From Eledone cirrhosa (taxonomy: Eukaryota), in NCBI GenBank assembly GCA_964016885.1, contig OZ024743.1:373116001-373180000 (forward strand): a stretch of DNA of 64,000 nucleotides. The letters are read 5' to 3'. This document shows, one piece after another, positions 1,827-63,788 of this stretch. Numbering within the stretch: position 1 is the stretch's first letter; every line of letters begins with the position of its first letter. A program made the translations under genes and the position numbers. The notes beneath the pieces were generated by a model, which was given only the letters and a program-made list of their open reading frames with translations, did not search any database and was not told where the DNA came from.

Positions 1827-2235
1827 TCATCATCATCATTATCATCGTTTAACGTCCATCTTCCATGCTAGCATGGGTCTGGACGAGAATTGTCCCACTT
1901 GAGGCAAGATTGGTTGTCTTGCTCAGGACTGTCTAGCGGCTTTTCTATGGCTGGATGCTCTTCCTAGCACCAAACACGTTTACAGTGTGGACTGGGAGGT
2001 TTTTACCGTGTTACCTACACGGCCACATTACAGTGTGGACTGTGTGTTTTTTTTGTCGTGACACCTACACGACCTCATTTATTTAGGACTGGATGTTGTA
2101 GTACCAGCATAGCTTTACATCAAAAGGGGTGGTGTAGATGGTGGTGGGGGTAGGGTAGTGAGACGAGGGTGTATTTTGGTTAAGAGGTGCCTACTGACTG
2201 TAGGTTTCGCTTTGTAGTTAGGCAAGGCGGGTCTT
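1827..2235 (-). mobile_element. RTE LINE 3' UTR fragment with (GAT)n tail
   Basis: Matches the family A 3' UTR (AAGACCCGCCTTGCC...CCATGCTAGCATGGAAGATGGACGTTAAACGATAATGATGATG on the minus strand). Confidence 0.8.
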
Positions 2236-2294
2236 ATATTTATATATACATATTTATATATTTATATTTACATATACATATTTATATATATATA

Positions 2295-2352
<58 letters not shown>

Positions 2353-2368
2353 CATATATATATATATT

Positions 2369-2442
<74 letters not shown>

Positions 2443-2456
2443 CATATATATATATT

Positions 2457-2659
<203 letters not shown>

Positions 2660-2933
2660 ATATTTATGTATATATATATATATATATATATTTATGTATA
2701 TATATATATATATATTTATATATTTATATATATATATATATATATTTATATATTTATATATATATATATATATATTTATATATTTATGTATATATATATA
2801 TATATTTATATATTTATATATATATATATATATATTTATATATTTATATATATATATATATATATTTATATATTTATATATATATATATATATTTATGTA
2901 TATATATATATATATATATATATAAATATATAA

Positions 2934-2966
<33 letters not shown>

Positions 2967-3230
2967 CATAAATATATATATATATTTAAATGTAAGTATG
3001 CATGTATACGTACATACATATATGTATACAGACGTACAGTAGCATGCACATATATATATATATATACATATATACATACATATGCATACAGGTACACATA
3101 CATATATGCACGTATCAGTTTATCGGCGCTAACGTCGCTTTGTTCGTTTGTAAACAAACTGAACAGCCTGAATTTATGCCATACGGTGTTAAGGCAACCA
3201 CGTCACCTTTTTGTTCAACACTAACACAGG

Positions 3231-3275
3231 AACGATGTACTAGTTTCAAGCTTGTTAGCTATCATCAGCACCGTT
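3231..3275 (-). ncRNA. Minimal type I hammerhead ribozyme
   Basis: AACGGTG CTGATGA T AGCT aaca AGCT T GAAA CTAG TA CATCGTT: 7-bp stem I, stem II, palindromic ACTAGT stem III, GUA site. Confidence 0.85.
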
Positions 3276-3696
3276 TACCCATCTGCCAGATAGTTGAACG
3301 TTCGAAAGTATATACTTTCCTTATGAAAATTAACGGCTGAGCAGCCTAATTTGCATATTGAGTGAGTTAAATCGGTCAGGCATACCGAAAACGATAAATT
3401 GAAACAAAATGAAAACGAAATTTCATTTCTCACTCTTAGTATGGCACTTACTTAAATGTAAGTATGCATGTATACGTACATACATATATGTATACAGACG
3501 TACAGTAGCATGCACACATATATATATATATACATATATACATACATATGCATACAGGTACACATACATATATGCACGTATCAGTTTATCGGCGCTAACG
3601 TCGCTTTGTTCGTTTGTAAACAAACTGAACAGCCTGAATTTATGCCATACGGTGTTAAGGCAACCACGTCACCTTTTTGTTCAACACTAACACAGG

Positions 3697-3741
3697 AACG
3701 ATGTACTAGTTTCAAGCTTGTTAGCTATCATCAGCACCGTT
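3697..3741 (-). ncRNA. Minimal type I hammerhead ribozyme (second tandem copy)
   Basis: Same sequence as 3231-3275, 466 nt away. Confidence 0.85.
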
Positions 3742-4086
3742 TACCCATCTGCCAGATAGTTGAACGTTCGAAAGTATATACTTTCCTTATGAAAATTAAC
3801 GGCTGAGCAGCCTAATTTGCATATTGAGTGCCATACTAAGTGTGAGATACTAAGTAAGTGCCATACTAAGAGTGAGAAATGAAATTTCGTTTTCATTTTG
3901 TTTCAATTTATATATATATTTATATATATATATATATATATTTATGTATATATATATATATATTTATATATTTATATATATATATATTTATATATTTATA
4001 TATTTATATATATATATATATATTTTTGTATATATATATATATATATATTTATATATTTATATATATATATATTTATATATTTATA

Positions 4087-4208
<122 letters not shown>

Positions 4209-4221
4209 GTCTATATATATA

Positions 4222-4698
4222 TTAAGTTAAAGTGTACATCTACATATGTATACGGAAGTATTAGTATGCATATAAATACACATATGTATACATATGTACA
4301 TGTACCGAGCTTTTCACTAGACACTTTACAGTGAGTGTCCAGCTAGTCTGTATGTAAACAGACGAACCGGGTTTTAAAGTCATACGAGTTTTCAAGGAAA
4401 CACATTTCCTCTATTCTCGGCTCTCTGGAGAATAGAGGAAATGTGTTTCCTTGAAAACTCATTTGACTTTAAAAGCCGGTTCGTCTGTTTACATACAGAT
4501 TAGCTGGACACTCACTGTAAAGTGTCTAGTGAAAAGCTCGGTACATGTACATATGTATACATATGTGTATTTATATGCATACTAATACTTCCGTATACAT
4601 ATATAGATGTACACTTTAACTTAATTGTTTAAGCGTCAGTCATACAAAAGTGAGTTAGAAGCGAAACGAAATTTAATTTCGTTTCGTTATTCGTTTTT
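4222..4698. repeat. About 400-bp fold-back palindrome (4222-4624, 9-nt loop) with a one-sided tail of about 75 bp, in (TA)n
   Basis: Arms are reverse complements around CTATTCTC ggctctctg GAGAATAG, with a few mismatches. Confidence 0.85.
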
Positions 4699-5445: not shown

Positions 5446-5917
5446 TATGCAAATTTTTATTTAAATTGTTGGGTTAACAACGAGTAAATATTTATAACTG
5501 ATATAAAAGCACTCAACAAGTATTTGGAGTATATTTACGATATTAAATAAATGGAAACTATATTCATAAAACCATATTTATTTCATTATATATATTTCAG
5601 GGATATCATATTAAAAATATGTTATGCCTTCTTCAGACAAAATACAATATAAACAGTCTTATAAATAGATAGATTCGACATACCTTTCAACTTCGACTTC
5701 TATTTGAAAAGTTGATTTGGTAGTGAAAAAATATTAGGGACAGTTATAAAAAGAAAGAAAGAAAAACGAAGAAAAAGAAGAAATGCATGCAACTAAATAG
5801 AGAGAGATAGATATAGAGAGATAGATAGAGAGAAGAAATTCATGTAAAGAAACAGAGAGAGATATATAGAGAGAGGAAAAAAACACAGAGGGAGATAGAT
5901 AGAGAGAGAGAGAGAAG

Positions 5918-5961
<44 letters not shown>

Positions 5962-6967
5962 GAGAGAGAGAGAAAATATAGAGAGATAGATATAGATAGA
6001 GATAGAGAGAAAGAAAATAGGTAGTTGGGCACCAGTTGAATGACGTATCAATGATATATTTATTTATTTATTTATTTATTTAGCTCTAGTATTAATGTAG
6101 AGAGAGATATATGTGGTTAAGAGAGAAAACAGCCGTTACATAGAGGGAAAAGAAAAATATCCAGACATAAACGAGGCAGATTTAAAACACTATGTTTCAT
6201 CAATGTAAAAAATATCAATTCGTATAAAACAGGCATTATAATGTAAATATCAGTATTCATGAATGAGACACGGATCAATAATGTGTGAAAAATAATGATC
6301 ATATGTCTAGTTTAAAAATTCCTAGGTTTATATTAGAGTTGAGGTAAAATAGAAGGTTATCCCAGATTTTATACTATATACATCCATGTGAATTTACGTG
6401 ATCAGCTCTGCAAATTCCTATTTCACACGAAAACATTCTCATTGTGCTATAAAAATTCTATTATACATATATGTGTACATACACACAAATATATATAGAG
6501 TCTACATTAATTTTAACAATACTATTCATGTCTTTACTCTACATGATTATCGTTCAAGCATAAATAGAGAACAGATATCAATATATCAATAAAAATATCA
6601 GAAACAAAAAAAAATAAATAAAAAACAAAAAAATCAAAAAAATATTAAAAATAAAAATATTAAAAATATTAAAAATATTAAAATAAAAATAAAACATAGT
6701 ATGCCCCGCAAATCAACCACAGAGATCAACCCTTCAAAGTTAATTGACAATATATTGCCAAGTTCGTTATAAGCATCAGAATCAAAAGCAAACAAAACCA
6801 AAAATTATTTACCAAATCCTGTCTAGCAGAAAACATTCCAAAAGTTTAGGATACCCATTTGATCTACAGATGGTCTTATATTTAATATAGAGGTTTGTCT
6901 AGTGTAAAATTTATTCGATATATTTGGAGCATCAACTTTTAGGGTAGTTTAATTATTCATGAAGAAT
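5446..6967 (-). repeat. 3' pseudo-LTR of the PLE
   Basis: Near-identical to 9314-10795; differences mainly in GA and TTTA microsatellite lengths. Confidence 0.9.
5574..5650 (-). ncRNA. Type I hammerhead ribozyme in the pseudo-LTR, sense to the ORF
   Basis: TATTTTGT CTGAAGA AGG..CATAT/ATATG..CCT GAAA TATATA TA ATGAAATA: 8-bp stem I with 2 G-U pairs, long stem II, palindromic AT stem III. Confidence 0.7.
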
Positions 6968-7029
6968 GTTTAAAATAAAAAGGAATCGAAAGATTTATCG
7001 GCGAGTTTCATAAATAATTATAAATCAAA

Positions 7030-9268
7030 TTAAATATACCACATTTTAAATTTATATTTATATTTAAAAGTTGAGTTCAATCTATGTCTGCAGCAACTGA
7101 ATAAATTTGTCCGTAAATTAAGGGAATTTTTAGATTTTAGTATAAAGAATATCTCCTCCGCGCAGAGGTCACATGTCTCAGAGGATGAATTAAAAGGAAT
7201 CCCTCTTGAGACTATATTCCAGGCCGTTGAATATCCAACGTTATCATGCCTAAGTTGCCAGAGTAAGCCTGATAGTGATGTTGAGGATTTTTTGCTTGGA
7301 TCTGTGAAAGAATTCTTGTGGTTATTATAGCGAAGTTTAAATTCTGTCGAGGTGGAACCAACATAGTTAAAAGAATTTAAGTCCGTTTTAACATTACAGT
7401 TGTATATTATATTTTTAACTAAGCAATTGTTATTTAACGGACATTTAGATCTATCTCTACAGTTTCATTTGTTAACTTGGATATTATTTATGCTATTATC
7501 GGTATTTTGGCTAGGTTTTAAATTCCTATTATTTATTCTATTAATATTTTGTGCTAAATTTTTGGTGGATGAGTAGGTTAATTTTATAGTATATCTATTG
7601 AAAATTGAGTGATACCTATGTGTTCTAGGGAAGCGATTATCAAGAGCATTAAAAAATAGTTTAGCGATGTGGGTTTTAATGTTTAGTGAGAAAGGGGGGG
7701 GGCAAACCATATTATATTCCTAGTTCTATTTCTTTTTTGGCTTTTGGAATTATTGTAATGCTTTCTATTATAGTTGTTAAAGTTGTTGCCGTAATTAAAA
7801 TTGTTGTTATTTTGGTTAGTTTGTCTATTATTATCTATGTACATAATTTTATCACTATATCCTGCTCTAGCTAACGCTTCATTGTAATACTGGGCTTTTT
7901 CGTCGAAAATCTTTTTATTAGATGAGATTCTAGAGATACGATTTTGAACAGAGTTTACTATAGTATTTTTAACAGATCTGGGGTGGTTAGAGTTAAAGCT
8001 GACATAGTTTAAGTTTTCATTCAACTTGTGAAATGGATAGTGAAGACATGTGTTGAGATTTAATGTTACATCTAGGAAATTGACTATTCTATGGTTATTC
8101 TCAATTTCTATTTTTAGATTAAAGTAATTAAAAAATTGTGTAATTTGTTTTCTTTTTCTATTTAGTTCAGAGTTATTATTTTCAATAAGTAAAAGCATGT
8201 CATCTCTATATAAACCTCCGGTAGCACCGGGTATTTTCCTATGCAGCGAATTGATTAAAAATAGGCCCACAAGGTCAGTTACCTGAGCTGAGTCGGATGA
8301 TCCCATAGTAATGTCGAAATTGTTATCTCTATCTGCTCTGGTCCATAGTTGGTCATTAAATTCTATCAATGTTTTCCTAGCCGATAATATAATGTGCATT
8401 TCATTGCTAGTTAGGTCTGTATGTTTGAATGCGTAATTTAGTGCCTTATTTAGTAGATTAGGGGTAATAGATGAATAATAGTTAGCGATATCTAGTTGAA
8501 TAAACTTATTATTATTGTTATATTTAATTTCTTTAAACCACTCAACAACCTCTCCAGTTCCCTTCCACAAGCTCAAGTTAGGTACACAATTCAAGTTTTT
8601 AATTTGCTGTATCACCCTGTCTAGAATGTTTTTGCTTAGTTTACCCAGGTCCGATTTTGATGGTGCAATCAATCTGACTGGCAGGTCATTTTCAAAATTA
8701 CTTTTGTGATCTTTCATATTGATCTTCGGTTTCCTGGGCACGAAAGGTTGTGTTCTGTTCTCAATTTCCAACTCATGCATTATACAAGATGCCTCAACAT
8801 TCATTTTCTCAAGCTCGGCCTTATCTGCTACCTTGTACTTTTTCCTCAGTTCTTTCAGTATGAGGCCATTATACATGTCTTTTTGCACTCCATAGAGGTT
8901 GTTGGTCTTGTCAGATTTCACCAAGATCTTCTCAGTTTTCTCTAAGCTCTTAATATTATCCTAATGCCTTTCAGATATTCCTGGCCTTTGAAGTTTCTCT
9001 TGAATTTGACTCCTTGTATGATAGAAATTATATCGTTTTCAAAGTCAAATAAAAGTTTGTTGGGGGGTGGATTTCTTTTAGATTTGAAAACTTTGTCTAA
9101 GTCCGAGACATTTTCATTTATATTAGATTTATCAAAGTGGAATGCCCGCCACCTGATTCTCCTTATAAAAGAGTCAGATTTATCTATTAATTGTTTAATA
9201 AAAATAAAGTCTTTGTTTCTAGGTAGAGGTATGTCTTTTAAAGAGGAAGAAATCTTAAAGAATTCCAT
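7030..9268 (-). pseudogene. PLE RT + GIY-YIG endonuclease ORF with two frameshifts (about 8950 and the G-run at about 7700) and an in-frame TGA (7465-7467)
   Basis: KSDKTNNLY, DIANYYSSI, ITMGS, GLYRDD, NFLDV, IIWFAPPFS. Hand translation past the TGA gives NCRDRSKCPL...NIIYNC...YVGSTSTEFKLRYNNH...CDLCAEE...LN..CRH, ending at TAA 7030. Confidence 0.85.
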
Positions 9269-9313
9269 TTTTTCAGTTATAATATAAAGCGCTCAACAGT
9301 ATTGGAGCAAGAT

Positions 9314-10795
9314 ATATGCAAAGTTTTATTTAAATTGTTGGGTTAACAACGAGTAAATATTTATAACTGATATAAAAGCACTCAACAAGTATTTGGAGTA
9401 TATTTACGATATTAAATAAATGGAAACTATATTTATAAAACCATATTTATTTCATTATATATATTTCAGGGATATCATATTAAAAATATGTTATGCCTTC
9501 TTCAGACAAAATACAATATAAACAGTCTTATAAATAGATAGATTTGACATACCTTTCAACTTCGACTTCTATTTGAAAAGTTGATTTGGTAGTGAAAAAA
9601 TATTAGGGACAGTTATAAAAAGAAAGAAAGAAAAACGAAGAAAAAGAAGAAATGCATGCAACTAAATAGAGAGAGATAGATATAGAGAGATAGATAGAGA
9701 GAAGAAATTCATGTAAAGAAACAGAGAGAGATATAGAGAGAGAGGAAAAAAAACACAGAGGGAGATAGATAGAGAGAGAGAGAGAGAAGAGAGGAGAGAG
9801 AGAGAGAGAGAGAGAGAGAAAATATAGAGAGATATATATAGATAGAGATAGAGAGAAAGAAAATAGGTAGTTGGGCACCAGTTGAATGACGTATCAATGA
9901 TATATTTATTTAGCTCTAGTATTAATGTAGAGAGAGATATATGTGGTTAAGAGAGAAAACAGCCGTTACATAGAGAGAAAAGAAAAATATCCAGACATAA
10001 ACGAGGCAGATTTAAAACACTATGTTTCATCAATGTAAAAAATATCAATTCGTATAAAACAGGCATTATAATGTAAATATCAGTATTCATGAATGAGACA
10101 CGTATCAATAATGTGTGAAAAATAATGATCATATGTCTAGTTTAAAAATTCCTAGGTTTATATTAGAGTTGAGGTAAAATAGAAGGTTATCCCAGATTTT
10201 ATACTATATACATCCATGTGAATTTACGTGATCAGCTCTGCAAATTCCTATTTCACACGAAAACATTCTCATTGTGCTATAAAAATTCTATTATACATAT
10301 ATGTGTACATACACACAAATATATATAGAGTCTACATTAATTTTAACAATACTATTCATGTCTTTACTCTACATGATTATCGTTCAAGCATAAATAGAGA
10401 ACAGATATCAATATATCAATAAAAATATCAGAAACAAAAAAAAATAAATAAAAAACAAAAAAATCAAAAAAATATTAAAAATAAAAATATTAAAAATATT
10501 AAAAATATTAAAATAAAAATAAAACAGTATGCCCCGCAAATCAACCACAGAGATCAACCCTTCAAAGTTAATTGACAATATATTGCCAAGTTCGTTATAA
10601 GCATCAGAATCAAAAGCAAACAAAACCAAAAATTATTTACCAAATCCTGTCTAGCAGAAAACATTCCAAAAGTTTAGGATACCCATTTGATCTACAGATG
10701 GTCTTATATTTAATATAGAGGTTTATCTAGTGTAAAATTTATTCGATATATTTGGAGCATCAGCTTTTAGGGTAGTTTAATTATTCATGAAGAAT
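9314..10795 (-). repeat. 5' pseudo-LTR of the PLE
   Basis: Direct repeat of 5446-6967; ends about 45 bp upstream of the ATG at 9268. Confidence 0.9.
9443..9519 (-). ncRNA. Type I hammerhead ribozyme in the 5' pseudo-LTR
   Basis: Copy of 5574-5650. Confidence 0.7.
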
Positions 10796-13236: not shown

Positions 13237-13818
13237 GCGGCGATGAATTAGTTTTGCGAGGTTTTTTATATGAAATCGTGTGTCGAAACAGATATTGTTA
13301 TATTTGGGGAGGGTCATATTTGCGTAATATTGCCAGAATTAATAACAGAACACACTCACTGTTTGGTTGGTTTTCGCTTCTCGCTGTCTTTTATATATAT
13401 ATATCTGCGATCTAGCTTACTCGGTCCTCAATGTTGCCATTGACTGACCGGCGGTCAAAAATAATACAGATACAATATAGACAAACACATATATATATAG
13501 TTTACATAAATCTTTCGTTGCACATCTGCAACATCGTCAGTGGTGTTATATTCATTGTTCCTCCTGTTGTGTTGTATGTCTACGCCATTTTTTTTTGTTC
13601 AGTCTGTCTATATATTTATTTATTTATTTGCTTGTTTGTTTATCTTATTTTATTTTGTCTTCTTTGCGCATGCGTTTGCGTGTGTGTATAGTGTTATGTG
13701 TGATGTGTGATGTGTGACTAGTGTGTATAGTGTTGTCTGCTGGGTGACTAGTGTGTGTTTATGTGCTTGTGTATGTATTTATTTATCTTATTTTATTTAA
13801 TTTAATTTACTTATTTAT

Positions 13819-16146
13819 TTATACTTCTCTTAGGTCAGTGTTGTTTGTTTGGGTGTTGTTGTTGTTCCACTCATTCTTTCTGTTTAGCTTTGGTCTTCTA
13901 ATTTCTATTTCACTGGCCTCTCTGATTTGCCTATCTGCTGGGTCATTCCTATGTTTAGATATTATTCTAATTTCTATGTTGTCTATGTTACCGTCATGAT
14001 GTTGTCTAGCATGTTCGTATAGTACTGACCCGTTTTTTCGTCCTTTTAGTTCCCCCCAGTGTTGGTCTATCCTTTCACCTATGCTACGAGCTGTCTCACC
14101 TATGTATGTTGTTGTCGTGTTTCTGCAAGTACCCTCTGTACATCTTATGCTATAGACTACGTTTCTAGTTTTACAGTTTATCCGGGGGTTCACCTTACAT
14201 ATGATACATTTCCTATTGGTACAGTGGGTTTTCTTAAAAGGGTAGGTTTTGCTGATCAGGGATTTTATGGTGGTTCCTGGCTTTTCTACCACCTTTATTT
14301 TTAAGTGGGTCTTTCTCAGGGCCTTTCTACACTGGTTAGCTAATTTCCCTCCAGGGGTGGCGTCCACAAACATGACACTCTGATATCTCTGGTTGTCGTA
14401 CCATGATGTGGCCTTCCCTATCTTATGTCTAGCCCTATCTAAGCTATTCCATGATTTGCTCCTGTATAGTGGGCAAATTCCTTTCATGTCCAGTTCTATG
14501 AGGGTCTTATACTTTTCCATGGCTCCTTCGTATACTCTGACTCTGTCTCTTTGGTTGTAGCCAGAGAACTGCATGCGGTTGATGAAGTGTTGGATGTGTC
14601 CTTCCATTTCTGTTGGGTCGCACATGCTGGACACATTCTTCATCACTCGTACCAAATCTGCGATCAGAATATTAAACTTAGCACTACTGGACATTGCTGA
14701 GTTTTTGAGTATCAGGTATTTGGAGGCCATGGGTTTAGCATAGTGTGAGTGGAGAATTTGGGCTCTCTCGTCTATAGTGTTAATCCAGAGTTCTGTGTCT
14801 AATACAGGTAGTCTATTGTTAGGGTGTTTGGAAGGGAAGTCTATAGTTACAGTTATACTCTGGTGTATGGAATTAGCTATCTGCTGGATGCTTTCCATCG
14901 TGCTACGTTCTAAATCAAACTTGTTAGTGCTGTCTAGTGGGGGTGTTCTTATAACTATATTGATATCGTCTACATAACGAGAGTACATGATGAGGTCTAT
15001 GGAGCTTTCATTAAGGAGATCTTTAAGTCTCCTTTCCCACCATACCATGAAAAGGTTGGCAACATCGCCAGCTATGCTGACGCCGATGGCTGCTCCCTCA
15101 TTTTGGGTGTAGATTTTCTCATTGAACTTAAATATGTGGCCCTTTAGGGTAGTTTTGATACTAGCCCCTATTGCATGTGCGACCATTTTTCTTACCTGAT
15201 CAGTGTTTTGGGGGGTCCGTATAGCTTTGGTCCACCCAATCCACCTTCCTATGGGAGTCTTTTTAGCCATTGAGGTTATGGTGGGGGGTCTACCTCTTAT
15301 AGGTCTACTAGGGCAGAAACATCTAAGGTCATGGCTGTCTAGGTAGTCAGTGTCGTAGGTAAGTCTAAGTAGGAGGCCCAGTTCGTCTGTGTCGACGTCG
15401 CAGAACTCCACCTCACTCTCAATGATCATCTCCACACATCTTTTCACAGCAAAATCAATGTTAATGGATGGGTACAGTGACACCACATCCATGCTGCCTA
15501 TTATGCAGTTGGATAGGCTCCTGTTTTTGTTGCACTCACTGATTCTGCTGAGGAGGTCCTCTGTACTTTCACATACATCTGGGGACATCTTGATTATGGG
15601 GCGTATAACCATTGAGAGGAAGTAGGAGATCCTGTAGTTGCTAGCTATATTAGCTCCGCATACAGGTCTTGTTGGTGGTCCTATTGTCGGGTCGTCGACT
15701 GTCTTGTGGTCTTTGCGGAGCCCATACAAGGGTGGTATGCCATTGTTAGACGCCTGGAAGTTGTTGGCAGTGCGTCTGCTTGGCTTTAGGATGTCAGTCC
15801 ACATCATCATGTGAGCGTTGAGGATTTTTTCTCTCCCATCGTGTGTTAGTTGTGCAACTTCGCTCGTGTTGGTGATGTGGGGTTGCATTGCCTCGATGTA
15901 GTTCGGCATGCTATCTATTGACATCCTACCAGACTTATCTGTGGGTAGACACACTACCTCACCATCCCTTGTGCGCTGCTTGAGGCTAACCAAGCCTTCT
16001 ACAGGTTTTATCCCAAGTTGTTGGGCCTCTGGTCTGCTCTGTCTCATAGTGTACCTGTCTACTACTTGTCTAATCTTATTTCTAGCTATGGTGAACTGTG
16101 CCTCCGTCTCGTCATCTATTTTAAATAGATGACGAGACGGAGGCAC
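13819..16146 (-). CDS. PLE RT + C-terminal GIY-YIG endonuclease (5'-truncated; the first 8 or so codons come from the opposite arm)
   Basis: PTDKSGR, LYGLRKDHK, SMDVVSLYPS, GAAIG, YSRYVDD, LPVLD, Cys-rich linker, VVYSIRC...YIGETAR...H...H...REA...LN. Confidence 0.88.
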   Translation of the reverse strand: MPPSRHLFKIDDETEAQFTIARNKIRQVVDRYTMRQSRPEAQQLGIKPVEGLVSLKQRTRDGEVVCLPTDKSGRMSIDSMPNYIEAMQPHITNTSEVAQLTHDGREKILNAHMMMWTDILKPSRRTANNFQASNNGIPPLYGLRKDHKTVDDPTIGPPTRPVCGANIASNYRISYFLSMVIRPIIKMSPDVCESTEDLLSRISECNKNRSLSNCIIGSMDVVSLYPSINIDFAVKRCVEMIIESEVEFCDVDTDELGLLLRLTYDTDYLDSHDLRCFCPSRPIRGRPPTITSMAKKTPIGRWIGWTKAIRTPQNTDQVRKMVAHAIGASIKTTLKGHIFKFNEKIYTQNEGAAIGVSIAGDVANLFMVWWERRLKDLLNESSIDLIMYSRYVDDINIVIRTPPLDSTNKFDLERSTMESIQQIANSIHQSITVTIDFPSKHPNNRLPVLDTELWINTIDERAQILHSHYAKPMASKYLILKNSAMSSSAKFNILIADLVRVMKNVSSMCDPTEMEGHIQHFINRMQFSGYNQRDRVRVYEGAMEKYKTLIELDMKGICPLYRSKSWNSLDRARHKIGKATSWYDNQRYQSVMFVDATPGGKLANQCRKALRKTHLKIKVVEKPGTTIKSLISKTYPFKKTHCTNRKCIICKVNPRINCKTRNVVYSIRCTEGTCRNTTTTYIGETARSIGERIDQHWGELKGRKNGSVLYEHARQHHDGNIDNIEIRIISKHRNDPADRQIREASEIEIRRPKLNRKNEWNNNNTQTNNTDLREV

Positions 16147-16196
16147 AGTTCACCATAGCTAGAAATAAGATTAGACAAGTAGTAGACAGGTACACT

Positions 16197-18425
16197 ATGA
16201 GACAGAGCAGACCAGAGGCCCAACAACTTGGGATAAAACCTGTAGAAGGCTTGGTTAGCCTCAAGCAGCGCACAAGGGATGGTGAGGTAGTGTGTCTACC
16301 CACAGATAAGTCTGGTAGGATGTCAATAGATAGCATGCCGAACTACATCGAGGCAATGCAACCCCACATCACCAACACGAGCGAAGTTGCACAACTAACA
16401 CACGATGGGAGAGAAAAAATCCTCAACGCTCACATGATGATGTGGACTGACATCCTAAAGCCAAGCAGACGCACTGCCAACAACTTCCAGGCGTCTAACA
16501 ATGGCATACCACCCTTGTATGGGCTCCGCAAAGACCACAAGACAGTCGACGACCCGACAATAGGACCACCAACAAGACCTGTATGCGGAGCTAATATAGC
16601 TAGCAACTACAGGATCTCCTACTTCCTCTCAATGGTTATACGCCCCATAATCAAGATGTCCCCAGATGTATGTGAAAGTACAGAGGACCTCCTCAGCAGA
16701 ATCAGTGAGTGCAACAAAAACAGGAGCCTATCCAACTGCATAATAGGCAGCATGGATGTGGTGTCACTGTACCCATCCATTAACATTGATTTTGCTGTGA
16801 AAAGATGTGTGGAGATGATCATTGAGAGTGAGGTGGAGTTCTGCGACGTCGACACAGACGAACTGGGCCTCCTACTTAGACTTACCTACGACACTGACTA
16901 CCTAGACAGCCATGACCTTAGATGTTTCTGCCCTAGTAGACCTATAAGAGGTAGACCCCCCACCATAACCTCAATGGCTAAAAAGACTCCCATAGGAAGG
17001 TGGATTGGGTGGACCAAAGCTATACGGACCCCCCAAAACACTGATCAGGTAAGAAAAATGGTCGCACATGCAATAGGGGCTAGTATCAAAACTACCCTAA
17101 AGGGCCACATATTTAAGTTCAATGAGAAAATCTACACCCAAAATGAGGGAGCAGCCATCGGCGTCAGCATAGCTGGCGATGTTGCCAACCTTTTCATGGT
17201 ATGGTGGGAAAGGAGACTTAAAGATCTCCTTAATGAAAGCTCCATAGACCTCATCATGTACTCTCGTTATGTAGACGATATCAATATAGTTATAAGAACA
17301 CCCCCACTAGACAGCACTAACAAGTTTGATTTAGAACGTAGCACGATGGAAAGCATCCAGCAGATAGCTAATTCCATACACCAGAGTATAACTGTAACTA
17401 TAGACTTCCCTTCCAAACACCCTAACAATAGACTACCTGTATTAGACACAGAACTCTGGATTAACACTATAGACGAGAGAGCCCAAATTCTCCACTCACA
17501 CTATGCTAAACCCATGGCCTCCAAATACCTGATACTCAAAAACTCAGCAATGTCCAGTAGTGCTAAGTTTAATATTCTGATCGCAGATTTGGTACGAGTG
17601 ATGAAGAATGTGTCCAGCATGTGCGACCCAACAGAAATGGAAGGACACATCCAACACTTCATCAACCGCATGCAGTTCTCTGGCTACAACCAAAGAGACA
17701 GAGTCAGAGTATACGAAGGAGCCATGGAAAAGTATAAGACCCTCATAGAACTGGACATGAAAGGAATTTGCCCACTATACAGGAGCAAATCATGGAATAG
17801 CTTAGATAGGGCTAGACATAAGATAGGGAAGGCCACATCATGGTACGACAACCAGAGATATCAGAGTGTCATGTTTGTGGACGCCACCCCTGGAGGGAAA
17901 TTAGCTAACCAGTGTAGAAAGGCCCTGAGAAAGACCCACTTAAAAATAAAGGTGGTAGAAAAGCCAGGAACCACCATAAAATCCCTGATCAGCAAAACCT
18001 ACCCTTTTAAGAAAACCCACTGTACCAATAGGAAATGTATCATATGTAAGGTGAACCCCCGGATAAACTGTAAAACTAGAAACGTAGTCTATAGCATAAG
18101 ATGTACAGAGGGTACTTGCAGAAACACGACAACAACATACATAGGTGAGACAGCTCGTAGCATAGGTGAAAGGATAGACCAACACTGGGGGGAACTAAAA
18201 GGACGAAAAAACGGGTCAGTACTATACGAACATGCTAGACAACATCATGACGGTAACATAGACAACATAGAAATTAGAATAATATCTAAACATAGGAATG
18301 ACCCAGCAGATAGGCAAATCAGAGAGGCCAGTGAAATAGAAATTAGAAGACCAAAGCTAAACAGAAAGAATGAGTGGAACAACAACAACACCCAAACAAA
18401 CAACACTGACCTAAGAGAAGTATAA
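16197..18425 (+). CDS. PLE RT + C-terminal GIY-YIG endonuclease (mirror copy)
   Basis: Same protein as the minus-strand copy; frame is open back to the TAA formed at the palindrome centre (16122-16124). Confidence 0.88.
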   Translation: MRQSRPEAQQLGIKPVEGLVSLKQRTRDGEVVCLPTDKSGRMSIDSMPNYIEAMQPHITNTSEVAQLTHDGREKILNAHMMMWTDILKPSRRTANNFQASNNGIPPLYGLRKDHKTVDDPTIGPPTRPVCGANIASNYRISYFLSMVIRPIIKMSPDVCESTEDLLSRISECNKNRSLSNCIIGSMDVVSLYPSINIDFAVKRCVEMIIESEVEFCDVDTDELGLLLRLTYDTDYLDSHDLRCFCPSRPIRGRPPTITSMAKKTPIGRWIGWTKAIRTPQNTDQVRKMVAHAIGASIKTTLKGHIFKFNEKIYTQNEGAAIGVSIAGDVANLFMVWWERRLKDLLNESSIDLIMYSRYVDDINIVIRTPPLDSTNKFDLERSTMESIQQIANSIHQSITVTIDFPSKHPNNRLPVLDTELWINTIDERAQILHSHYAKPMASKYLILKNSAMSSSAKFNILIADLVRVMKNVSSMCDPTEMEGHIQHFINRMQFSGYNQRDRVRVYEGAMEKYKTLIELDMKGICPLYRSKSWNSLDRARHKIGKATSWYDNQRYQSVMFVDATPGGKLANQCRKALRKTHLKIKVVEKPGTTIKSLISKTYPFKKTHCTNRKCIICKVNPRINCKTRNVVYSIRCTEGTCRNTTTTYIGETARSIGERIDQHWGELKGRKNGSVLYEHARQHHDGNIDNIEIRIISKHRNDPADRQIREASEIEIRRPKLNRKNEWNNNNTQTNNTDLREV

Positions 18426-18700
18426 ATAAATAAGTAAATTAAATTAAATAAAATAAGATAAATAAATACATACACAAGCACATAAACACACACTAGTCAC
18501 CCAGCAGACAACACTATACACACTAGTCACACATCACACATCACACATAACACTATACACACACGCAAACGCATGCGCAAAGAAGACAAAATAAAATAAG
18601 ATAAACAAACAAGCAAATAAATAAATAAATATATAGACAGACTGAACAAAAAAAAATGGCGTAGACATACAACACAACAGGAGGAACAATGAATATAACA

Positions 18701-18740
18701 CCACTGACGATGTTGCAGATGTGCAACGAAAGATTTATGT
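18701..18740 (+). ncRNA. Hammerhead-like motif in the PLE 3' UTR (mirror copy at 13504-13543)
   Basis: CTGACGA T GTTGCA gatg TGCAAC GAAA GATT TA; core and stem II good, stem I only 2 bp. Confidence 0.5.
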
Positions 18741-18948
18741 AAACTATATATATATGTGTTTGTCTATATTGTATCTGTATTATTTTTGACCGCCGGTCAG
18801 TCAATGGCAACATTGAGGACCGAGTAAGCTAGATCGCAGATATATATATATAAAAGACAGCGAGAAGCGAAAACCAACCAAACAGTGAGTGTGTTCTGTT
18901 ATTAATTCTGGCAATATTACGCAAATATGACCCTCCCCAAATATAACA

Positions 18949-18980
<32 letters not shown>

Positions 18981-19713: not shown

Positions 19714-22142
19714 TCTTTTACACTATTACTCTTTTACCTGTTTCAGCCATCCGGCTGAGGCCATGCTGGGGCACCGCCCTTGTTGCTACACATTTTATCT
19801 CCAGCCTGTATAGGTTGGCCACTGGTGTAGGAGGGAGTTTGTTGCTGCTGCCCTTAGGTTTCCCTCGTGTCTTGCTGTGGGCTCATCCGGGATCCTGGAT
19901 AACAAGGTGTCGAGATGTTTCTTAAAGACATCCACCTCCACGTCATGGAAGTCTCTCAGATGCCTCGGCAGCCTGTTGAAGAGTTGAGGGCCCCTGAATC
20001 CCAGGCTATTGCAATACCTGCTCCTTATTCTAGATGTGGAAGACGGGACCTTTGGCACCACACAGTGACGTCCTGTTCGACGGTTGGTCCAGCTCCCAAT
20101 CCCAAAGTTTGGTGCTAGTCCCTCCAGGATTTTCCACATGTAGATCACTGCGTATCTCTCCCGTCTTCGCTCCAAGGAGTAGAGGTTCAGTTCCTTCAGC
20201 CTCTCCCAGTAGCTTGTCTCCCTCATCTTGGCAATCCTCTTGGTGTAGCTTCGCTGGATTGCCTCAAGCTCCGTGGTTAGTTTGACACTATGGGGTGACC
20301 ACAGCTGGGAGCAGTCGTCCAGGCGGCTTAGGACAAAAGTCCTCCACAGTGTCAACATGGTGTCTCGATCTCTTGTAAGGAAAGTCCTCAAGATCCAGCC
20401 AGCGAATCGTCTACATGCTGTCGCCACCTTCATGATGTGTGAAGAAAAAGATGCATCATCGCTCATGTCTATGCCCAGGTCTCGTATCGATTTTGACACT
20501 GGGATATCGGTCCCTCCTGGTCCTGTGTAGCTGTGTTCCGCTATATTTGTGTTTGTGTTTGCAGGTTTGTATTGTAGGGCTTGGAATTTGCCAGCATTAA
20601 ACTGCATGTTGTTTTCTTCCGCCCATCTGTATATGGCATCCAGATCCTGCTGTAAGAGGGCAGCGTCAGCCGGGTTTTTGATTGCCTGTGCTACCTTAGT
20701 GTCACCAGCATAGCTAGTGAGGGATGTTGTTGCATGCACCACAGAGGGCATGTCCGAGAGAGCCACCAAAAACAGTAGTGGTCCCAGGACTGTCCCCTGA
20801 GGCACCCCACTTGTTATCGGTGTTTCCCTCGGAAGGGCCCCATTTGCTGCGACTGCCTGGCTTCTGTCCCTTAGGAAGCCATGCAGCCACTCACCTACTT
20901 TTCCAGTTATGCCGAGTCCGCCTAGTTTGTGACATATCATTCCGTGGTCGACCTTGTCAAAGGCCTTCGCAAAGTCAAGATATATCACGTCTACATGTGA
21001 GCTGTCTAGTAGTTGTCTCAGTACCCAGTCGTAGTGATGTAGCAGCTGTGTAAGGCAGCTTCTTCCTGGGCGGAAGCCATGTTGCGTGCTAGTCAGGCGG
21101 TCATTTTCTTCGAGGAAAGTGATTAGTTTCTTTCTGACGACTCGCTCCATGACCTTACTGATATGCGACGTCAGGGAGACTGGCCTATAGTTCTTGGCCT
21201 CCGCTCTACTACCTCCTTTATGGATAGGGCATATTCTGCCTTCTTTCAGCTCCCTGGGTAGTACACCGCTAGCCAAGGAGCTTCTGAAGAGCATCTTCAG
21301 TGGAGTTGCTAAGGCCCGCTTACATGTTTTTAGGAGAACTGCTGGGAATCCATCAGGTCCAGCATCCGAGTCTGTTCTAATTTCATCAATGGCGTACACC
21401 ACATCCTCCTCCATTATGTCTATGTGGTTGATGGTTGCCATTTCTTGATGTAGTGTTGTGTCATCAAAGAACTCCTCTGGCTTCGTTATTTGCATGTGCC
21501 TCAGTGGACATGTGAAGACACTTTTGTACTGTTCGTTCAGTATTTCACATATCTCTTGGGGATTTTCGGTTAATGAACCGTCCGTGTGGAAGAGTGGTCC
21601 AATCTTGCAGTGTACTGAGGCAGTTTCTTTTGCAAATTTAAAGAAGGCCTTAGGGTTTGTTTTAATGTTTTCTATGGCCCTGTTCTCTTTCCTTGCCCTC
21701 TCATTCTCATGTGAAAGCTTGAGTGCAATCTCGGTGTCAAGTAGTGCACGTTTCAAATAGGATTCCTTCTTGTTTTGTTGACTATTCAACTGGTTTGAGA
21801 GTTTAGTTCTACGTCTCATAAGGATTTTCCTATCTCTGGGAATAAGATTTTTGTGTCTGTTTGCCTCTTTCTCCGGGACACACTTTTTGCATATGGTGTG
21901 TATCGTTGTCATGAAGTGTTGAAATTGTGTGTTAGTGTCTTGTGTGGCGATGTTTGCACTCCATGTTTGCTTCCGGATTTCACTCTTAATCTTCTTCCAG
22001 TCAGCCCCGTAGAAGTTAAGGCTGGATAGCGTCCCGGAGCTTCTTGGTGGTTTTGTCTCTGTTGGTTCTCTTGGACCACATATCATTAGCTCCACCAAGT
22101 TATGATCCGAGAGAATTGTTGGTGTCACCTTTACATTGTGGA
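19712..22142 (-). mobile_element. CR1-clade LINE, 5'-truncated
   Basis: RT ORF; short 3' UTR GGCGGTGCCCCAGCATGGCC...GGCTGAAACAGGTAAAAGAG; (TA)n on both sides. Confidence 0.85.
19795..22128 (-). CDS. CR1-type ORF2 (end of endonuclease + RT); catalytic YADD changed to YAGD
   Basis: [73 protein letters not shown]. Confidence 0.85.
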
Positions 22143-22402
22143 TATATATATATATTTATATATATATATTTATATATATATTTATATATATATTTATATA
22201 TATATTTATATATATATATTTATATATATATTTATATATATATATTTATATATATATATTTATATATATATATTTATATATATATATTTATATATATATA
22301 TTTATATATATATATTTATATATATATATTTATATATATATATATTTATATATATATATTTATATATATATATTTATATATATAAATTTATATATATAAA
22401 TT

Positions 22403-23285: not shown

Positions 23286-25361
23286 GTCAGATAAATCTAC
23301 CAAGAGTTTACGGTAGTGTCCAATCCGTATGAAGAACTCAATGTATTCCGGATATCATGGAAAGAAGAAATGTAATGAAAAATCACTTTCGGTGAGAGAT
23401 AAACGGTATACAGAGTCAAGATAAAATATTAAACAAATAATGAATAAACAATTCCTTATATTAAACAAAAAAAAGTTCATTATTTAACGATCGTTTCTAG
23501 GATATATATGTGTTAGAGTTGGCATGCATATTCAACAGATCTATGTACAAAATTATACAAAATTATACAAACTATCAAGATTAAATATACATACCAACAC
23601 ATATATACGCCGTCTTCAGAAATAATGAAATATATTTATTGATAATAACAACAATTCAAACTTTCAGGTCCGTTTGGGAACAAAATTGTCCAATGAAAAT
23701 ACAAAAGGTTTAATGCCGTTCGGTGTGTGTATATACATGTAATAACCCTTACACATATTTTACAAAAATGTATGCACAACCTGTATACTCATACAAAAAG
23801 GATGGATGCAAATACAAAATTTCAAGGTTAATGTCTCTGTAAGTTTATAATGCACAGATAAGATGCGTATAGATACATAAATATGAAATAAATGTATACA
23901 CATATTTTCATACTAACACATATCCATACAATCACACATACACGCGCGTATATGCATAAACATACACATAAACTACAAACATATAAACACACACACACCA
24001 CCACTCACATATATATATGTGGATATAAAATCCTAAGCACATGGATATTAATTCACTCACATAAACACTGGCACACACATTTAGATAAAGATACAGAAAT
24101 TAGGTGGGAGGGGGGGGGGGGGAGGTCAGTATTCAACGGTTTGGGCTGCCTGCTTAATATAGATGTATCTATAAACTAAGAAAATAAAAAATAATAATAA
24201 ATAATAAATAAACATTAAAAAGGAAAGAGAAGAAAAGAAAAAGAAGAAAAAGAAGAAAAAAAGAAAAAAGAAAAAGAAATATATCAAGAAAATATATATA
24301 TATATATATACATATATATATCCATACATATATATATATCTATATATATATATACATACACATATATACATACATACACATACATACATACACACACACA
24401 CATATACATATACACATACACATATACAAACACATACATACATATACACACATCCCCACTTAGAACATAACATACACACACATATATAAACATATACATA
24501 TACACACATAGATACAAATACACACATACTTTTTTCTTTTTTCTTTTTCTTCTCTTTCCTTTTTAATGTTTATTTATTATTTATTATTATTTTTTATTTT
24601 CTTAGTTTATAGATACATCTATATTAAGCAGGCAGCCCAAACCGTTGAATACTGACCTCTCCCCCCCCCCCCCCCTCCCACCTAATTTCTGTATCTTTAT
24701 CTAAATGTGTGTGCCAGTGTTTATGTGAGTGAATTAATATCCATGTGCTTAGGATTTTATATCCACATATATATATGTGAGTGGTGGTGTGTGTGTGTTT
24801 ATATGTTTGTAGTTTATGTGTATGTTTATGCATATACGCGCGTGTATGTGTGATTGTATGGATATGTGTTCAGTATGAAAATATGTGTATACATTTATTT
24901 CATATTTATGTATCTATACGCATCTTATCTGTGCATTATAAACTTACAGAGACATTAACCTTGAAATTTTGTATTTGCATCCATCCTTTTTGTATGAGTA
25001 TACAGGTTGTGCATACATTTTTGTAAAATATGTGTAAGGGTTATTACATGTATATACACACACCGAACGGCATTAAACCTTTTGTATTTTCATTGGACAA
25101 TTTTGTTCCCAAACGGACCTGAAAGTTTGAATTGTTGTTATTATCAATAAATATATTTCATTATTTCTGAAGACGGCGTATATATGTGTTGGTATGTATA
25201 TTTAATCTTGATAGTTTGTATAATTTTGTATAATTTTGTACATAGATCTGTTGAATATGCATGCCAACTCTAACACATATATATCCTAGAAACGATCGTT
25301 AAATAATGAACTTTTTTTGTTTAATATAAGGAATTGTTTATTCATTATTTGTTTAATATTT

Positions 25362-25364
<3 letters not shown>
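23286..25364. mobile_element. Non-coding inverted-repeat element (arms about 23421-24250 and 24530-25364, microsatellite spacer, 135-bp left tail); PLE pseudo-LTR-like
   Basis: Arms are reverse complements, each with a hammerhead; flanked by (TA)n. Confidence 0.75.
25157..25310 (+). ncRNA. Type I hammerhead with a stem II region of about 115 nt (mirror copy 23476-23629, minus)
   Basis: TTCATTATTT CTGAAGA ...TATATATGTGTTGG...CTAACACATATATA... GAAA CGATCG TT AAATAATGAA; perfect 10-bp stem I, palindromic ACGATCGT. Confidence 0.75.
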
Positions 25365-26073: not shown

Positions 26074-26090
26074 TAGATATATATATATAT

Positions 26091-26260
26091 TTACGATATT
26101 AAATAAATGGAAACTATATTTATAAAACCATATCTATTTCATTATATATATTTCAGGGATATCATATTAAAAATATGGTATGCCTTCATCAGACAAATGC
26201 CTATATCTGTTATAAATATTTACTCGTTGTAACCCAACAATTTAAATAAAACTTTGCATA
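26091..26260 (-). mobile_element. Rearranged fragment of the Hydra-like PLE pseudo-LTR containing its hammerhead (about 26130-26197)
   Basis: 26091-26197 matches 5535-5641 (core CTGATGA here); 26209-26260 is the inverse of 5447-5498. Confidence 0.75.
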
Positions 26261-52899: not shown

Positions 52900-55800
52900 C
52901 TTCATGTATTTTACCATGTCTTGTCAGAACACAAGCTGACTTGCAAATTAAGCTACACCCAGGACAAATGGACCTGGTGGTAAAACTATCTTACAAGATT
53001 TCCCTCTGGCTCATGTGACATTATGTGGTTGACTAATCCAGTTCTTGAGAGAAGAAATCATCCACACATACATGTCACACTTCAATTCCTGCAGGTTGCA
53101 GATACTACACTTGTGTTTTGCTTACAGAGTGAACACTTCAAAACAGTGTGATCCACTTCCTTTTGCTCAAAGACACCACATCTATTCTCAATAATCTTTC
53201 TCCAAGATGCACACAAAGAGAGCTTTGTGTTTGTAGTGATACCCTGATCTAACCAGACTTGCTTCTTGACTTTCCCAAAAGAAACACAAGTTTTCACAAT
53301 CTTGTGGTTTATTTCAGAATCAAGGGCGTCATCTCTACTAAACATTCTTCTGAGATACACAAAGCTGTCTACCATTTCATGTCTTTTTCCTTCCATGAAA
53401 ATATTAGTCTCCACCATACATTCTCAACTGGTGAAGTGTACATGACCTTTGTCTGGTTAAGTGTAAATGAGCTTTGCGCCATTTGAAAAGAGGCGCTACT
53501 TGGACTAGGAGCACTTTCTATTAAAGTCAGATAAGCTATCGTCAGAGAGTGAAAAAAGAAACTTCTTCAGATGTATGATCTGTCTTTGATTATCATGGAT
53601 GAGAAACACTATGGTGGCTGGATCATTAAACCATTTGTATAAATTATTAGGCCAATAGTGAAAAATACATTGCTGGGAACTACATGACTACACAGGCATA
53701 CCTCATAGTATGAATTGTCAAATATTTTAATAGGGTTTTAATATTTGTCAAAGATCAGTATTACACAGATCACTCCCTTTAATATTTGTCAAGGATCAGT
53801 ATTACACAGATCACTCCCTTTAATATTTGTCAAGGATCAGTATTACACAGATCACTCCCATTAATATTTGTCAAAGATCAGTATTACACAGATCACTCCC
53901 TTTAATATTTGTCAAAGATCAGTATTACACAGATCATTCCCTTTAAATACACTAACACTTTTGCCAATACTTTACGTACATTTAAGTCTAAAGAATACCT
54001 GTAGAACAAATGAAAATGCAGTTTAATACCCTAAACCTCCATTTATTTAAACTCCGCTGTCAATCCCATTGTCGAAAAACTACTATGTAGCTTGCTGCAT
54101 GGATAGGGGCACAATTTCAATGTTTGCTATAGGCGCTATTTTCCCTTGTTACATCTCTGCAAGAGTGCCAAATGTTTTTAACTTGGTGTTGAAAAGTCTT
54201 AGATTGAAGACTTTGCCTGAGGTTCTCAATCATATCTATACACTCCTTGATTTCAGATACTTATATGAAAACTTAAATGAATATTCTTACTATGTTGGTG
54301 GCTACAGTTGCATAAACTAACAAAGTTTCATGTGGTATTGGTTGATATCATAGACACTTGATGTGTTGCTCAGCAAACATCAATGTAATGATCATTTAAG
54401 TTTTGATATTATAAGTATTTGAAGTGTTTTTGTTGTCACCCTGTATACATTGGTTTTGCAGTCTTGGAAGGCATATATTAGTAACACAGCAAAATAGATG
54501 GAGAACAGAGTGGGTTGGTATGTCAACTTGTTTGGCACTATTTCCCACTGAAATTAGCTCAGAAAGTGTCACATTGAAGTTTACTTTTGCCTTCATGTTA
54601 TGATGAAGCTTTTTGAATTCAGGAGGGCATCCAAGCTTCTTCAATATGACCCACAATGCACTATGATTAACAATATCAAAGACCTTAGTTAGGTCCCAAA
54701 ATACTTCATACAGTGGCAACACGCTTCTCCATAAGCTACTCTCAGATCTTGAATACCCCCCCCCCCCCCCACACACACACACCGCTTATTAATTTTTCAG
54801 ACTTTTTCACTCCGCCCGATTTTATTCCCCATCCCCTGTGCTTATTAAATTTTGTAAATCTATCTCTGGCGAAATTTTATTGTAAGTAATACAGCAGCTG
54901 GAGAATCTTATAAATACTTTATTTTACATTAAAAAACATATATGACAAAAAAAGAACATTATAAGAAATTCCATATTTACGAATGTACACTCTACAATTA
55001 ACCCCCCCCCCCCCCGTTTATTCCATCCCCCTCTCCCCTGTCGTGTATAAGAATTTGAGCAAATGTCCAATCCCCCTATTATTTGGGACCCAAGAGTAGC
55101 TGGTTGAGAAGATCATGTCCATAGTACTCTGACCAGCTCTAAATCCACACTGGGTCTCAGGGATAACACCAGGGAAAATCCATTTGTTAGTCGATTCAAC
55201 AAAAGCTTGGATAGAAAGTTTTCTGTGAAATTGAGCAGACTTATACCATGATAGTCACTACATTCAGACTTGGAGCCCTTGCCCTTGTAAATGATAAGCA
55301 TAATTGCATCAACCCACTCTTGCAGGACAGACTCGCCATGACATACAGATAAAATTAGCTCATTAATGGCTATAACAATATTGTCTCCTCCAAAGCTGAT
55401 CAGCTCAATAGGTATTCCAAACCTGAAGCTTTCCCTATGTTTATCTCTTTGATACTAGACCTTATCTTATCAATGGTTGATTCATTCATCATCTCTATCA
55501 GAGTCTTCTTTCACAGCAGTCCATTAATAATTTAATCATCAACTACAGATGGGTTCTGAAACAGATCTTTAAAGTCCACCAATTCATGATTCCTGTTGGA
55601 TCTTTAATGTGGGCACTCTCAGCTTTTGACTTCACTGGTGTCACTTTTAAGGTCTTTGGATCAACAATTTGCAAAAGAAGACCATTGGTATTAATCTTGT
55701 CCATGTCAGTATGTCCTGAAGCACTCTGCATGTTGTGCTTACTGTTCACACATTCATTGAAATCTCCAAGCAGCAAGATCTTATTTGCATGTGGAATCAA

Positions 55801-62474: not shown

Positions 62475-62612
62475 ATGGAAAATTCCTATTAAAGTGAAAA
62501 CAAAATCAATCGATCCGGTATACTGGATGTTTTGATTAAACGATTATTATTATTAACGAAATGAATGAAAGAAAAAGAAAGCTTAACATATGTAGGTCTG
62601 CAAATATAAAAC

Positions 62613-63788
62613 TGAGGTGTCAGGTGATGCCCGTGAGGCTGCTTGGTTGTTTCAGCACCTTAGCCTCACAGACACTTAGCCTTGCCATCACCTAGGCTTA
62701 CTGAGGTGTCAAGTGATGCCCGTGAGGGTGCTTGGTTGTTTCAGCGCCTCAGCCTCGCCATCACCCAGCCTTACCGAGGTGTCAAGTGATGCCCGTGAGG
62801 GTGCTTGGTTATTTCAGCGCCTCAGCCTCGCCATCACCCAGCCGTACCGAGGTGTCAAGTGATGCCCGTGAGGGTGCTTGGTTATTTCAGCGCCTCAGCC
62901 TCGCCATCACCCAGCCGTACCGAGGTGTCAAGTGATGCCCGTGAAGGTGCTTGGTTGTTTCAGCGCCTCAGCCTCGCCATCACCCAGCCTTACCGAGGTG
63001 TCAAGTGATGCCCGTGAGGGTGCTTGGTTATTTCAGCGCCTCAGCCTCGCCATCACCCAGCCGTACCGAGGTGTCAAGTGATGCCCGTGAGGGTGCTTGG
63101 TTGTTTCAGCGCCTCAGCCTCGCCATCACCCAGCCGTACCGAGGTGTCAAGTGATGCCCGTGAGGGTGCTTGGTTGTTTCAGCGCCTCAGCCTCGCCATC
63201 ACCCAGCCTTACCGAGGTGTCAAGTGATGCCCGTGAGGGTGCTTGGTTATTTCAACGCCTCAGCCTCGCCATCACCCAGCCTTACCGAGGTGTCAAGTGA
63301 TGCCCGTGAGGGTGCTTGGTTATTTCAGCGCCTCAGCCTCGCCATCACCCAGCCGTACCGAGGTGTCAAGTGATGCCCGTGAGGGTGCTTGGTTATTTCA
63401 ACGCCTCAGCCTCGCCATCACCCAGCCTTACCGAGGTGTCAAGTGATGCCCGTGAGGGTGCTTGGTTATTTCAACGCCTCAGCCTCGCCATCACCCAGCC
63501 TTACCGAGGTGTCAAGTGATGCCCGTGAGGGTGCTTGGTTATTTCAACGCCTCAGCCTCGCCATCACCCAGCCTTACCGAGGTGTCAAGTGATGCCCGTG
63601 AGGGTGCTTGGTTATTTCAACGCCTCAGCCTCGCCATCACCCAGCCTTACCGAGGTGTCAAGTGATGCCCGTGAGGGTGCTTGGTTATTTCAACGCCTCA
63701 GCCTCGCCATCACCCAGCCTTACCGAGGTGTCAAGTGATGCCCGTGAGGGTGCTTGGTTGTTTCAGCGCCTCAGCCTCGCCATCACCC
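62613..63788. repeat. GC-rich 73-bp tandem array: about 15 near-identical units from 62703 plus one diverged 90-bp lead unit
   Basis: Unit GAGGTGTCAAGTGATGCCCGTGAGGGTGCTTGGTT(A/G)TTTCA(G/A)CGCCTCAGCCTCGCCATCACCCAGCC(T/G)TACC. Confidence 0.97.

Follow-up and report, generated by a model that had tools for sequence, protein, structure and literature searches.

Non-LTR retrozymes of animals, as characterised in the relevant sections of Cervera & de la Pena 2020 (PMC7229834) and Li, Clavereau & Pollet 2026 (10.64898/2026.07.22.740005), consist of tandem noncoding units of a few hundred nucleotides with one type I hammerhead ribozyme each, and further share a low GC content, thousands of copies, a self-paired predicted circle and the coexistence of Penelope-like retrotransposons (PLEs). 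In published animal retrozymes either RNA circles or sequence kinship to PLEs has been shown, kinship to PLE terminal repeats being given for 24 of 57 Xenopus families (10.64898/2026.07.22.740005). In a word search of the main texts of these two papers, neither tails nor inverted arms nor a targeting of TA sequence turned up, and a literature search on retrozyme end anatomy (main texts, incomplete coverage) found no paper on the subject.

PLEs themselves, including PAc of Anolis and the Hydra and Neptune clades, are described in the sections consulted as bearing two internal 3' end sites around a tail, partial tandem copies, inverted 5'-truncated arms, a bias towards (TA)n targets and a hammerhead (PMC11167929; Craig et al. 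2021, PMC8557442). In vitro the purified PAc protein cleaves AT-rich DNA on both strands and extends them, and its reverse transcription initiates at two internal sites, the interval between which corresponds to the genomic tail (Frangieh et al. 2024, PMC11167929). Non-autonomous PLEs of Chlamys, such as MRC1, are likewise noncoding, multicopy head-to-tail insertions mobilised by PLEs, while differing from the family described below in that they have 3' sequence in common with autonomous partners and in that most Chlamys elements are without canonical hammerheads (PMC8557442). Newt satellite 2 and the schistosome hammerhead satellites, compared here by description, are also tandem hammerhead repeats with dimer cleavage through a weak helix III (PMC7229834, PMC2220036).

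The window analysed here, a 64-kb stretch of the Eledone cirrhosa genome, contains a locus that is a young daughter insertion, 1.8 units long, of a high-copy noncoding tandem repeat with a type I hammerhead motif, that is, a non-LTR retrozyme, likely put into (TA)n by a PLE enzyme acting in trans. The 466-nt unit is numbered from the base after the predicted cut (window position 3703, minus strand), and the features of the locus are as follows.

2235..2982, no strand: left (TA)n target tract
2983..3830, minus strand: main arm of 1.8 tandem units (unit 340-466, 1-466 and 1-~251), with its 'short' end site in (TA)n
3228..3280, minus strand: hammerhead 2, same sequence as hammerhead 1, predicted cut 3238/3237
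3238..3703, minus strand: 466-nt monomer, the interval between the two predicted cuts, GC 0.36
3322..3357, again at 3788-3823, minus strand: hairpin with octamer-like ATGCAAAT, common to the 467-nt sister family
3394..3454, minus strand: 'tail' segment (unit 250-310) bounded by the two fixed end sites of the family and carrying a terminal hairpin
3459..3582, minus strand: internal TA/TG-rich self-complementary segment, the origin of most unit-length variation
3694..3746, minus strand: hammerhead 1, canonical type I, predicted cut 3704/3703
3831..3850, no strand: 20-nt filler where the two arms meet head to head, in part a repeat of the beginning of the inverted arm
3851..3911, plus strand: inverted second arm, an exact copy of unit 250-310, with its 'long' end site in (TA)n
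3912..4222, no strand: right (TA)n target tract
4223..4697, no strand: head-to-head fragment of the 467-nt sister retrozyme family, with one short and one long end

The octamer-like motif is reminiscent of the snRNA-type promoter in newt satellite 2. The two halves of the direct repeat (2983-3364 and 3449-3830) differ at 2 of 382 positions, both within TA-rich sequence, and the inverted arm (3851-3911) matches 3394-3454 at all 61 nucleotides. The inverted terminal tail to which an earlier note on this DNA had drawn attention is an exact 61-nt arm spanning the two fixed end sites of the family, and it is the most informative feature of the locus. The tandem dimer of the same note proved to be an ordinary 1.8-unit daughter insertion.

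The hammerhead cores lie at 3734-3710 and 3268-3244 on the minus strand, and a strict type I descriptor, applied to both strands of the window, found these two matches only, and none in each of 100 local shuffles. Helix I comprises 6 bp followed by a bulge and three further pairs, helix II has a U-U mismatch at its base followed by 4 bp and an AAYA loop, and helix III is a single A-U pair closed by a palindromic loop. The earlier description of two identical ribozymes on the minus strand with predicted cuts exactly 466 nt apart, both with the stem III palindrome (ACUAGU), holds in these respects, but the term minimal does not apply by helix lengths. According to the definitions given by Cervera & De la Pena 2014 (PMC4209133), the min-HHRs of PLE terminal repeats have a helix II of 7-8 bp, a helix I of 4-5 bp and a poorly defined loop 1, whereas canonical metazoan type I ribozymes have a helix I of 6 bp, a helix II of 4 bp and a helix III of 1-2 bp with a palindromic loop; by this standard the hammerhead of the window is of the canonical metazoan type I with an intact core. 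With respect to the axolotl ribozymes, its palindromic helix III of 1 bp is as in HHR_Amex1 and the U-U at the base of its helix II as in HHR_Amex2 (PMC7229834). A search of Rfam gave nothing at the gathering score and only a weak match to HH9 (19 bits, E 0.096); miRNA matches were discarded, as they arise from the TA repeat.

Across nine sequences of four families all 126 of 126 cells of the covariation test pair and nine of the 14 pairs have changed on both sides, as opposed to only 38-48% paired in slid controls, the four lineages amounting to few independent events and the structure having been drawn from the same sequences. The compensatory changes between families indicate that the predicted RNA fold is under selection. 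Between families the helix III loop has changed from CUAG to CGCG with the palindrome kept. The 467-nt sister family has a non-palindromic CUGG loop in 18 of its 44 listed ribozymes. Per-position conservation of the core was left unused, being biased by the choice of loci through exact core matches. The computed cost of closing helix III in a monomer is approximately 5.4 kcal/mol and the intermolecular palindrome duplex yields -4.8 kcal/mol, which agrees with dimer cleavage as reported for the axolotl retrozymes (PMC7229834). The U-U mismatch at the base of helix II and the single pair of helix III would, by comparison with the ribozymes in PMC7229834, predict weak activity of the monomer, and the minimum-energy fold of the ribozyme region differs from the active fold (z -1.78). 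In Xenopus, eight of nine retrozyme dimers failed to cleave in vitro according to the preprint (bioRxiv 10.64898/2026.07.22.740005). We consider it probable that the predicted ribozyme is active in vivo.

An exact 31-nt core of the element has 10,718 matches in the 3.0-Gb assembly and its reversed control has none. Arrays range from less than one to about 19 units, sit inside (TA)n and are spread over many contigs (the best 40 matches fall on at least nine); unit length is 454-526 nt among 66 distinct units, and the window copy falls within a young subfamily whose arrays on other contigs are 99-100% identical. In view of the number of cores, the many contigs and the near-identical dispersed arrays, the repeat is an independent mobile element. 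The possibility, raised in the earlier note, that the unit is no more than a coding PLE's 3' UTR with no independent copies fails on these counts and on the lack of a parental upstream PLE ORF in the loci examined. An older subfamily (428 nt in the extracted unit) has the hammerhead geometry of the window family. The 467-nt sister family, of which the fragment at 4223-4697 is about 67% alike to the window family over 252 nt with a common tail layout, has an exact 27-nt core occurring 1,506 times, arrays of at least 15 units and, elsewhere in the genome, a canonical hammerhead with a GUC cut. A third retrozyme family, whose unit has 310 nt and whose helix III loop is CGCG, occupies the same TA tracts (L041:5500-6520; L061:1970-3031) and is also arranged head to head in sampled region L061. 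These three, the older subfamily, the 467-nt family and the 310-nt family, all with the same hammerhead geometry, were met in loci fetched for other reasons.

Part of the window stretch is also present in 20 sequencing runs labelled as 16 organisms. The eight runs aligned comprise contigs of unspecified kind and one Hi-C run; runs X3, X4 and X12 hold near-identical unit pieces at depth 4-7, X7 at approximately 80-160, and X1 and X16 at high depth, while X20 contains no reads of the unit and X21 and X22, from the sample of X12, none of its words. Carry-over of a very high-copy repeat seems a likelier explanation for these matches than horizontal transfer.

The claim that the unit holds no real ORF was borne out: the 112-aa antisense frame begins in the TA repeat, reaches at least 100 aa in just 22 of the 66 distinct units, whose lengths occupy all three frames, and is thus not conserved, and a Pfam search of the element gave no match above the cut-off. 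A tRNA search of the 466-nt monomer found none, an RT or GIY-YIG endonuclease ORF, as expected of an autonomous PLE, is absent from the element, and no LTR layout was present in any locus examined. The predicted 466-nt circle folds at -146.6 kcal/mol with 67% of its bases paired (z -5.6; -3.1 without the TA segment; 25 shuffles each). The element thus has what is expected of a retrozyme, namely one type I hammerhead per tandem unit, a unit of a few hundred nucleotides, dimers to multimers at many loci, and, by sequence, a noncoding character, a GC content below 50% and a highly self-paired predicted circle. Its placement in the retrozyme class, proposed earlier as a resemblance, is one in which we have very high confidence. 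Retrozymes being already known, the window family is an additional family that agrees with them in all sequence-level traits tested; it is known from DNA alone and with no parent terminal repeat found, in which it differs from the published animal retrozymes.

The insertion ends were surveyed in 53 fetched regions of contig C1, which cover the first 100 listed matches to the exact core with the exception of the last one. Arms were mapped by BLAST and one insertion per region was entered by hand in a table, any further pieces within a region, among them a second insertion in L138, not being counted; arms split by microsatellite growth were merged by hand in L051, L109, L110 and L112. The resulting 80 arm 3' ends fall at unit 300-312 in 41 cases (long), at 232-256 in 34 (short) and elsewhere in four, with one running out of the fetched DNA, so that two fixed internal sites, separated by about 59 nt, account for 75 of 80 and the ribozyme cut for none. 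Among 114 ribozyme matches none ends and none begins at the cut, this being the only figure kept from an automatic end classifier whose short-end calls were too loose. The 5' ends are scattered, one of 80 being within 8 nt of the cut. Head-to-head insertions numbered 27 and paired a long with a short end in 23 cases, two short ends in one and two long ends in none (three were unclassifiable). The long arm barely exceeds the tail in the window copy, L028, L034 and L130, as if stopped by the second start site, and there is a hint of clustering of short-arm 5' ends, 13 of 26 of which lie within unit 285-405 (p 0.007, for an interval picked after viewing the data). In the older subfamily the homologous end sites are 56 nt apart, as judged by eye. 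Target-site duplications are unreadable inside (TA)n.

Two fixed 3' end sites, with one per arm in inverted insertions, constitute the two-site 'tail' signature of PLEs, and it is for this reason that mobilisation of the element by PLEs is regarded as highly likely. The PLE-like traits are all present, i.e. the two-site tail, the inverted 5'-truncated arm, the partial tandem and the (TA)n target, and coding PLEs of the E. cirrhosa genome show the same two-end pattern, with a tail of about 57 nt in the Neptune/Nematis-type PLE of the window and of about 87-90 nt in Hydra-type PLEs (both by eye). These labels derive from the linker zinc-finger motif in the former case and from DKT and CxCx5C motifs in the latter. 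Tail length weakly favours a Neptune/Nematis-type PLE as the helper. The element departs from described PLEs in the absence of the RT/endonuclease ORF and in its tail of about 59 nt as against 30-40 nt; furthermore, in the in vitro work on PAc (PMC11167929) the start site is equal between strands, whereas the window family nearly always has one site per arm.

DNA searches with the unit, the older subfamily and the fused Hydra-type PLE found no parent PLE, and five to six protein queries placed no PLE ORF upstream as a parent in the sampled loci; a rare parent PLE bearing the unit as its terminal repeat may exist. Among 38 non-canonical junctions there are sense-sense TA-free fusions to a Hydra-type PLE (L102, L105) and to a Neptune/Nematis-type PLE (L177, L182). 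Terminal repeats of PLEs (L139, L181) and copies of RTE (L062, L113, L116) are joined to the retrozyme head to head. In L102, L105 and L177 the long/short pairing is kept though the two ends stem from different elements. The fusions were rejected as proof of a helper PLE, as later insertion with deletion explains all of them and RTE copies abut the ends too.

Several other elements were observed in the window. A Neptune/Nematis-type PLE at 13240-18960 forms a near-perfect 4.5-kb inverted duplicate with a partial ORF of 766 aa (RT and GIY-YIG); its hammerhead-like cores lie at 18704 and 13540, and of its two ends one is long and the other short. A Hydra-type PLE occupies 5449-10795 on the minus strand (RT 7683-8960, endonuclease 7030-7464) with direct terminal repeats of about 1.6 kb and hammerhead-like cores at 5636 and 9505, a further piece lying at 26090-26260. 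A head-to-head insertion of a PLE terminal repeat only is present at 36500-37165 (hammerhead-like cores 36757 and 36964, tail about 58 nt), and an inverted duplicate of about 510 nt (23421-23932 / 24853-25364) is found beside TA tracts at 23290-25364. Minisatellites occur at 62611-63788 (73-nt unit), 53737-53946 (41-nt) and 29853-30018 (37-nt); RTE-type LINE fragments are numerous across the window, and one other LINE RT is located at 19795-22155.

The preferred explanation, which we regard as fairly likely, runs as follows. The arrays would be transcribed, and cleavage by the hammerheads, likely acting as dimers by way of the palindromic helix III, would release monomers that a host ligase could close into circles. 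Both strands of (TA)n would be cut by the endonuclease of a PLE and would serve as primers for reverse transcription, each starting at an internal site of its own (unit 310 and ~251). The RT would cross intact ribozyme junctions, for which rolling round a circle is the simplest course, and the two cDNAs would join head to head. That the insertions record asymmetric double priming on a ribozyme-made RNA circle in this full form, with PLE cutting of both (TA)n strands and one cDNA per fixed site rolling until collision, is put forward tentatively and is somewhat doubtful as a whole. A circular or single-unit template for most insertions, taken by itself, is slightly favoured.

Since the arms cross ribozyme junctions freely, the template must have had intact junctions, which leaves as candidates a circle, an uncut multimer and monomers that the RT joined by jumping. 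The most serious alternative, which we deem rather unlikely, is that the element is a PLE derivative, itself non-autonomous, whose copies are made from linear multimeric transcripts left uncut, with the ribozyme kept and circles being rare or a by-product and not the template. In the in vitro system of PAc, unprocessed RNA was indeed the main template and ribozyme mutants left insertion unchanged (PMC11167929). Units differ at a median of 3 positions within arrays and 13 between them (34 and 462 pairs, 293 columns), and seven of 12 arrays, eight of the 12 having just two units, carry a private substitution fixed in all units, most other private changes being singletons. Such fixed substitutions suggest a one-unit (circular) template, whereas linear inheritance needs a separate homogenisation. 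On the same side stand one variant unit of a mixed array that is the sole unit type of two arrays elsewhere, one array that alternates between two unit types, A and B, three times, and the stable predicted fold of the circle, and the maintenance of the ribozyme fold across families by compensatory change likewise speaks against copying of uncut RNA alone. Nevertheless, some of the long arrays contain mixed units with periods of 5 and 8 units, which a single monomer circle leaves unexplained and which are in keeping with multimeric templates, as is a rare variant common to both arms of one insertion. Joints that go back 466 nt in three sequence runs were rejected as evidence of circles, a collapsed tandem repeat yielding the same. 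Nor can junction RT-PCR, as proposed in the earlier note, show a circle, since genomic arrays already contain the uninterrupted cut junction and an uncut multimeric transcript would do so too.

The remaining explanations concern the origin and the carrier of the repeat. The 5- and 8-unit periodicities of long arrays also fit later local duplication, and the preprint 10.64898/2026.07.22.740005 proposes as one route that unequal crossing-over expands an orphaned PLE terminal repeat on the spot into a minisatellite, with no transposition of multimers; thousands of dispersed copies, RT-type ends at fixed sites in (TA)n, 5' truncation of varying extent, head-to-head arms and near-identical arrays on different contigs largely refute it as the main route, and it is judged very improbable. 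Equally improbable is mobilisation of the same retrozyme by an RTE-type LINE in place of a PLE. RTE-type LINEs are abundant in the genome, also at TA tracts, and three retrozyme 5' ends adjoin truncated RTE copies, but no poly(A) or simple-repeat 3' tail and no 3' end in common with RTE was seen, and the two fixed internal starts, one per arm, match the PLEs of this genome and of the literature. That the unit is merely the terminal repeat of a coding PLE is the least credible reading: it would account for all the structural hallmarks of a PLE and for the few copies fused directly to PLE sequence, yet the loci tested with protein queries revealed no parental ORF upstream, 29 other copies of the fused Hydra-type PLE carry their own unrelated terminal repeat, and the fusions occur at arbitrary positions and to different PLE families.

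The preferred reading thus remains that of a retrozyme carried by PLEs. PLEs have so far been proposed as retrozyme carriers mainly from co-occurrence and sequence kinship, and the window family carries the two-site initiation signature of PLEs directly in its ends. The way in which PLEs produce tailed copies in tandem and inverted form is, according to Craig et al. 2021 (PMC8557442), not yet settled. Were double priming on a circle to hold, it would provide one mechanism for the PLE tail, the inverted arm and multimers, the rare fusions with coding PLE sequence would have arisen by template switching and would identify the helper, and the presence of at least four retrozyme families in one genome would offer thousands of natural replicates. 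A 466-nt noncoding RNA with mapped start sites would also serve as a small substrate for studying PLE copying and for discriminating between circular and multimeric templates.
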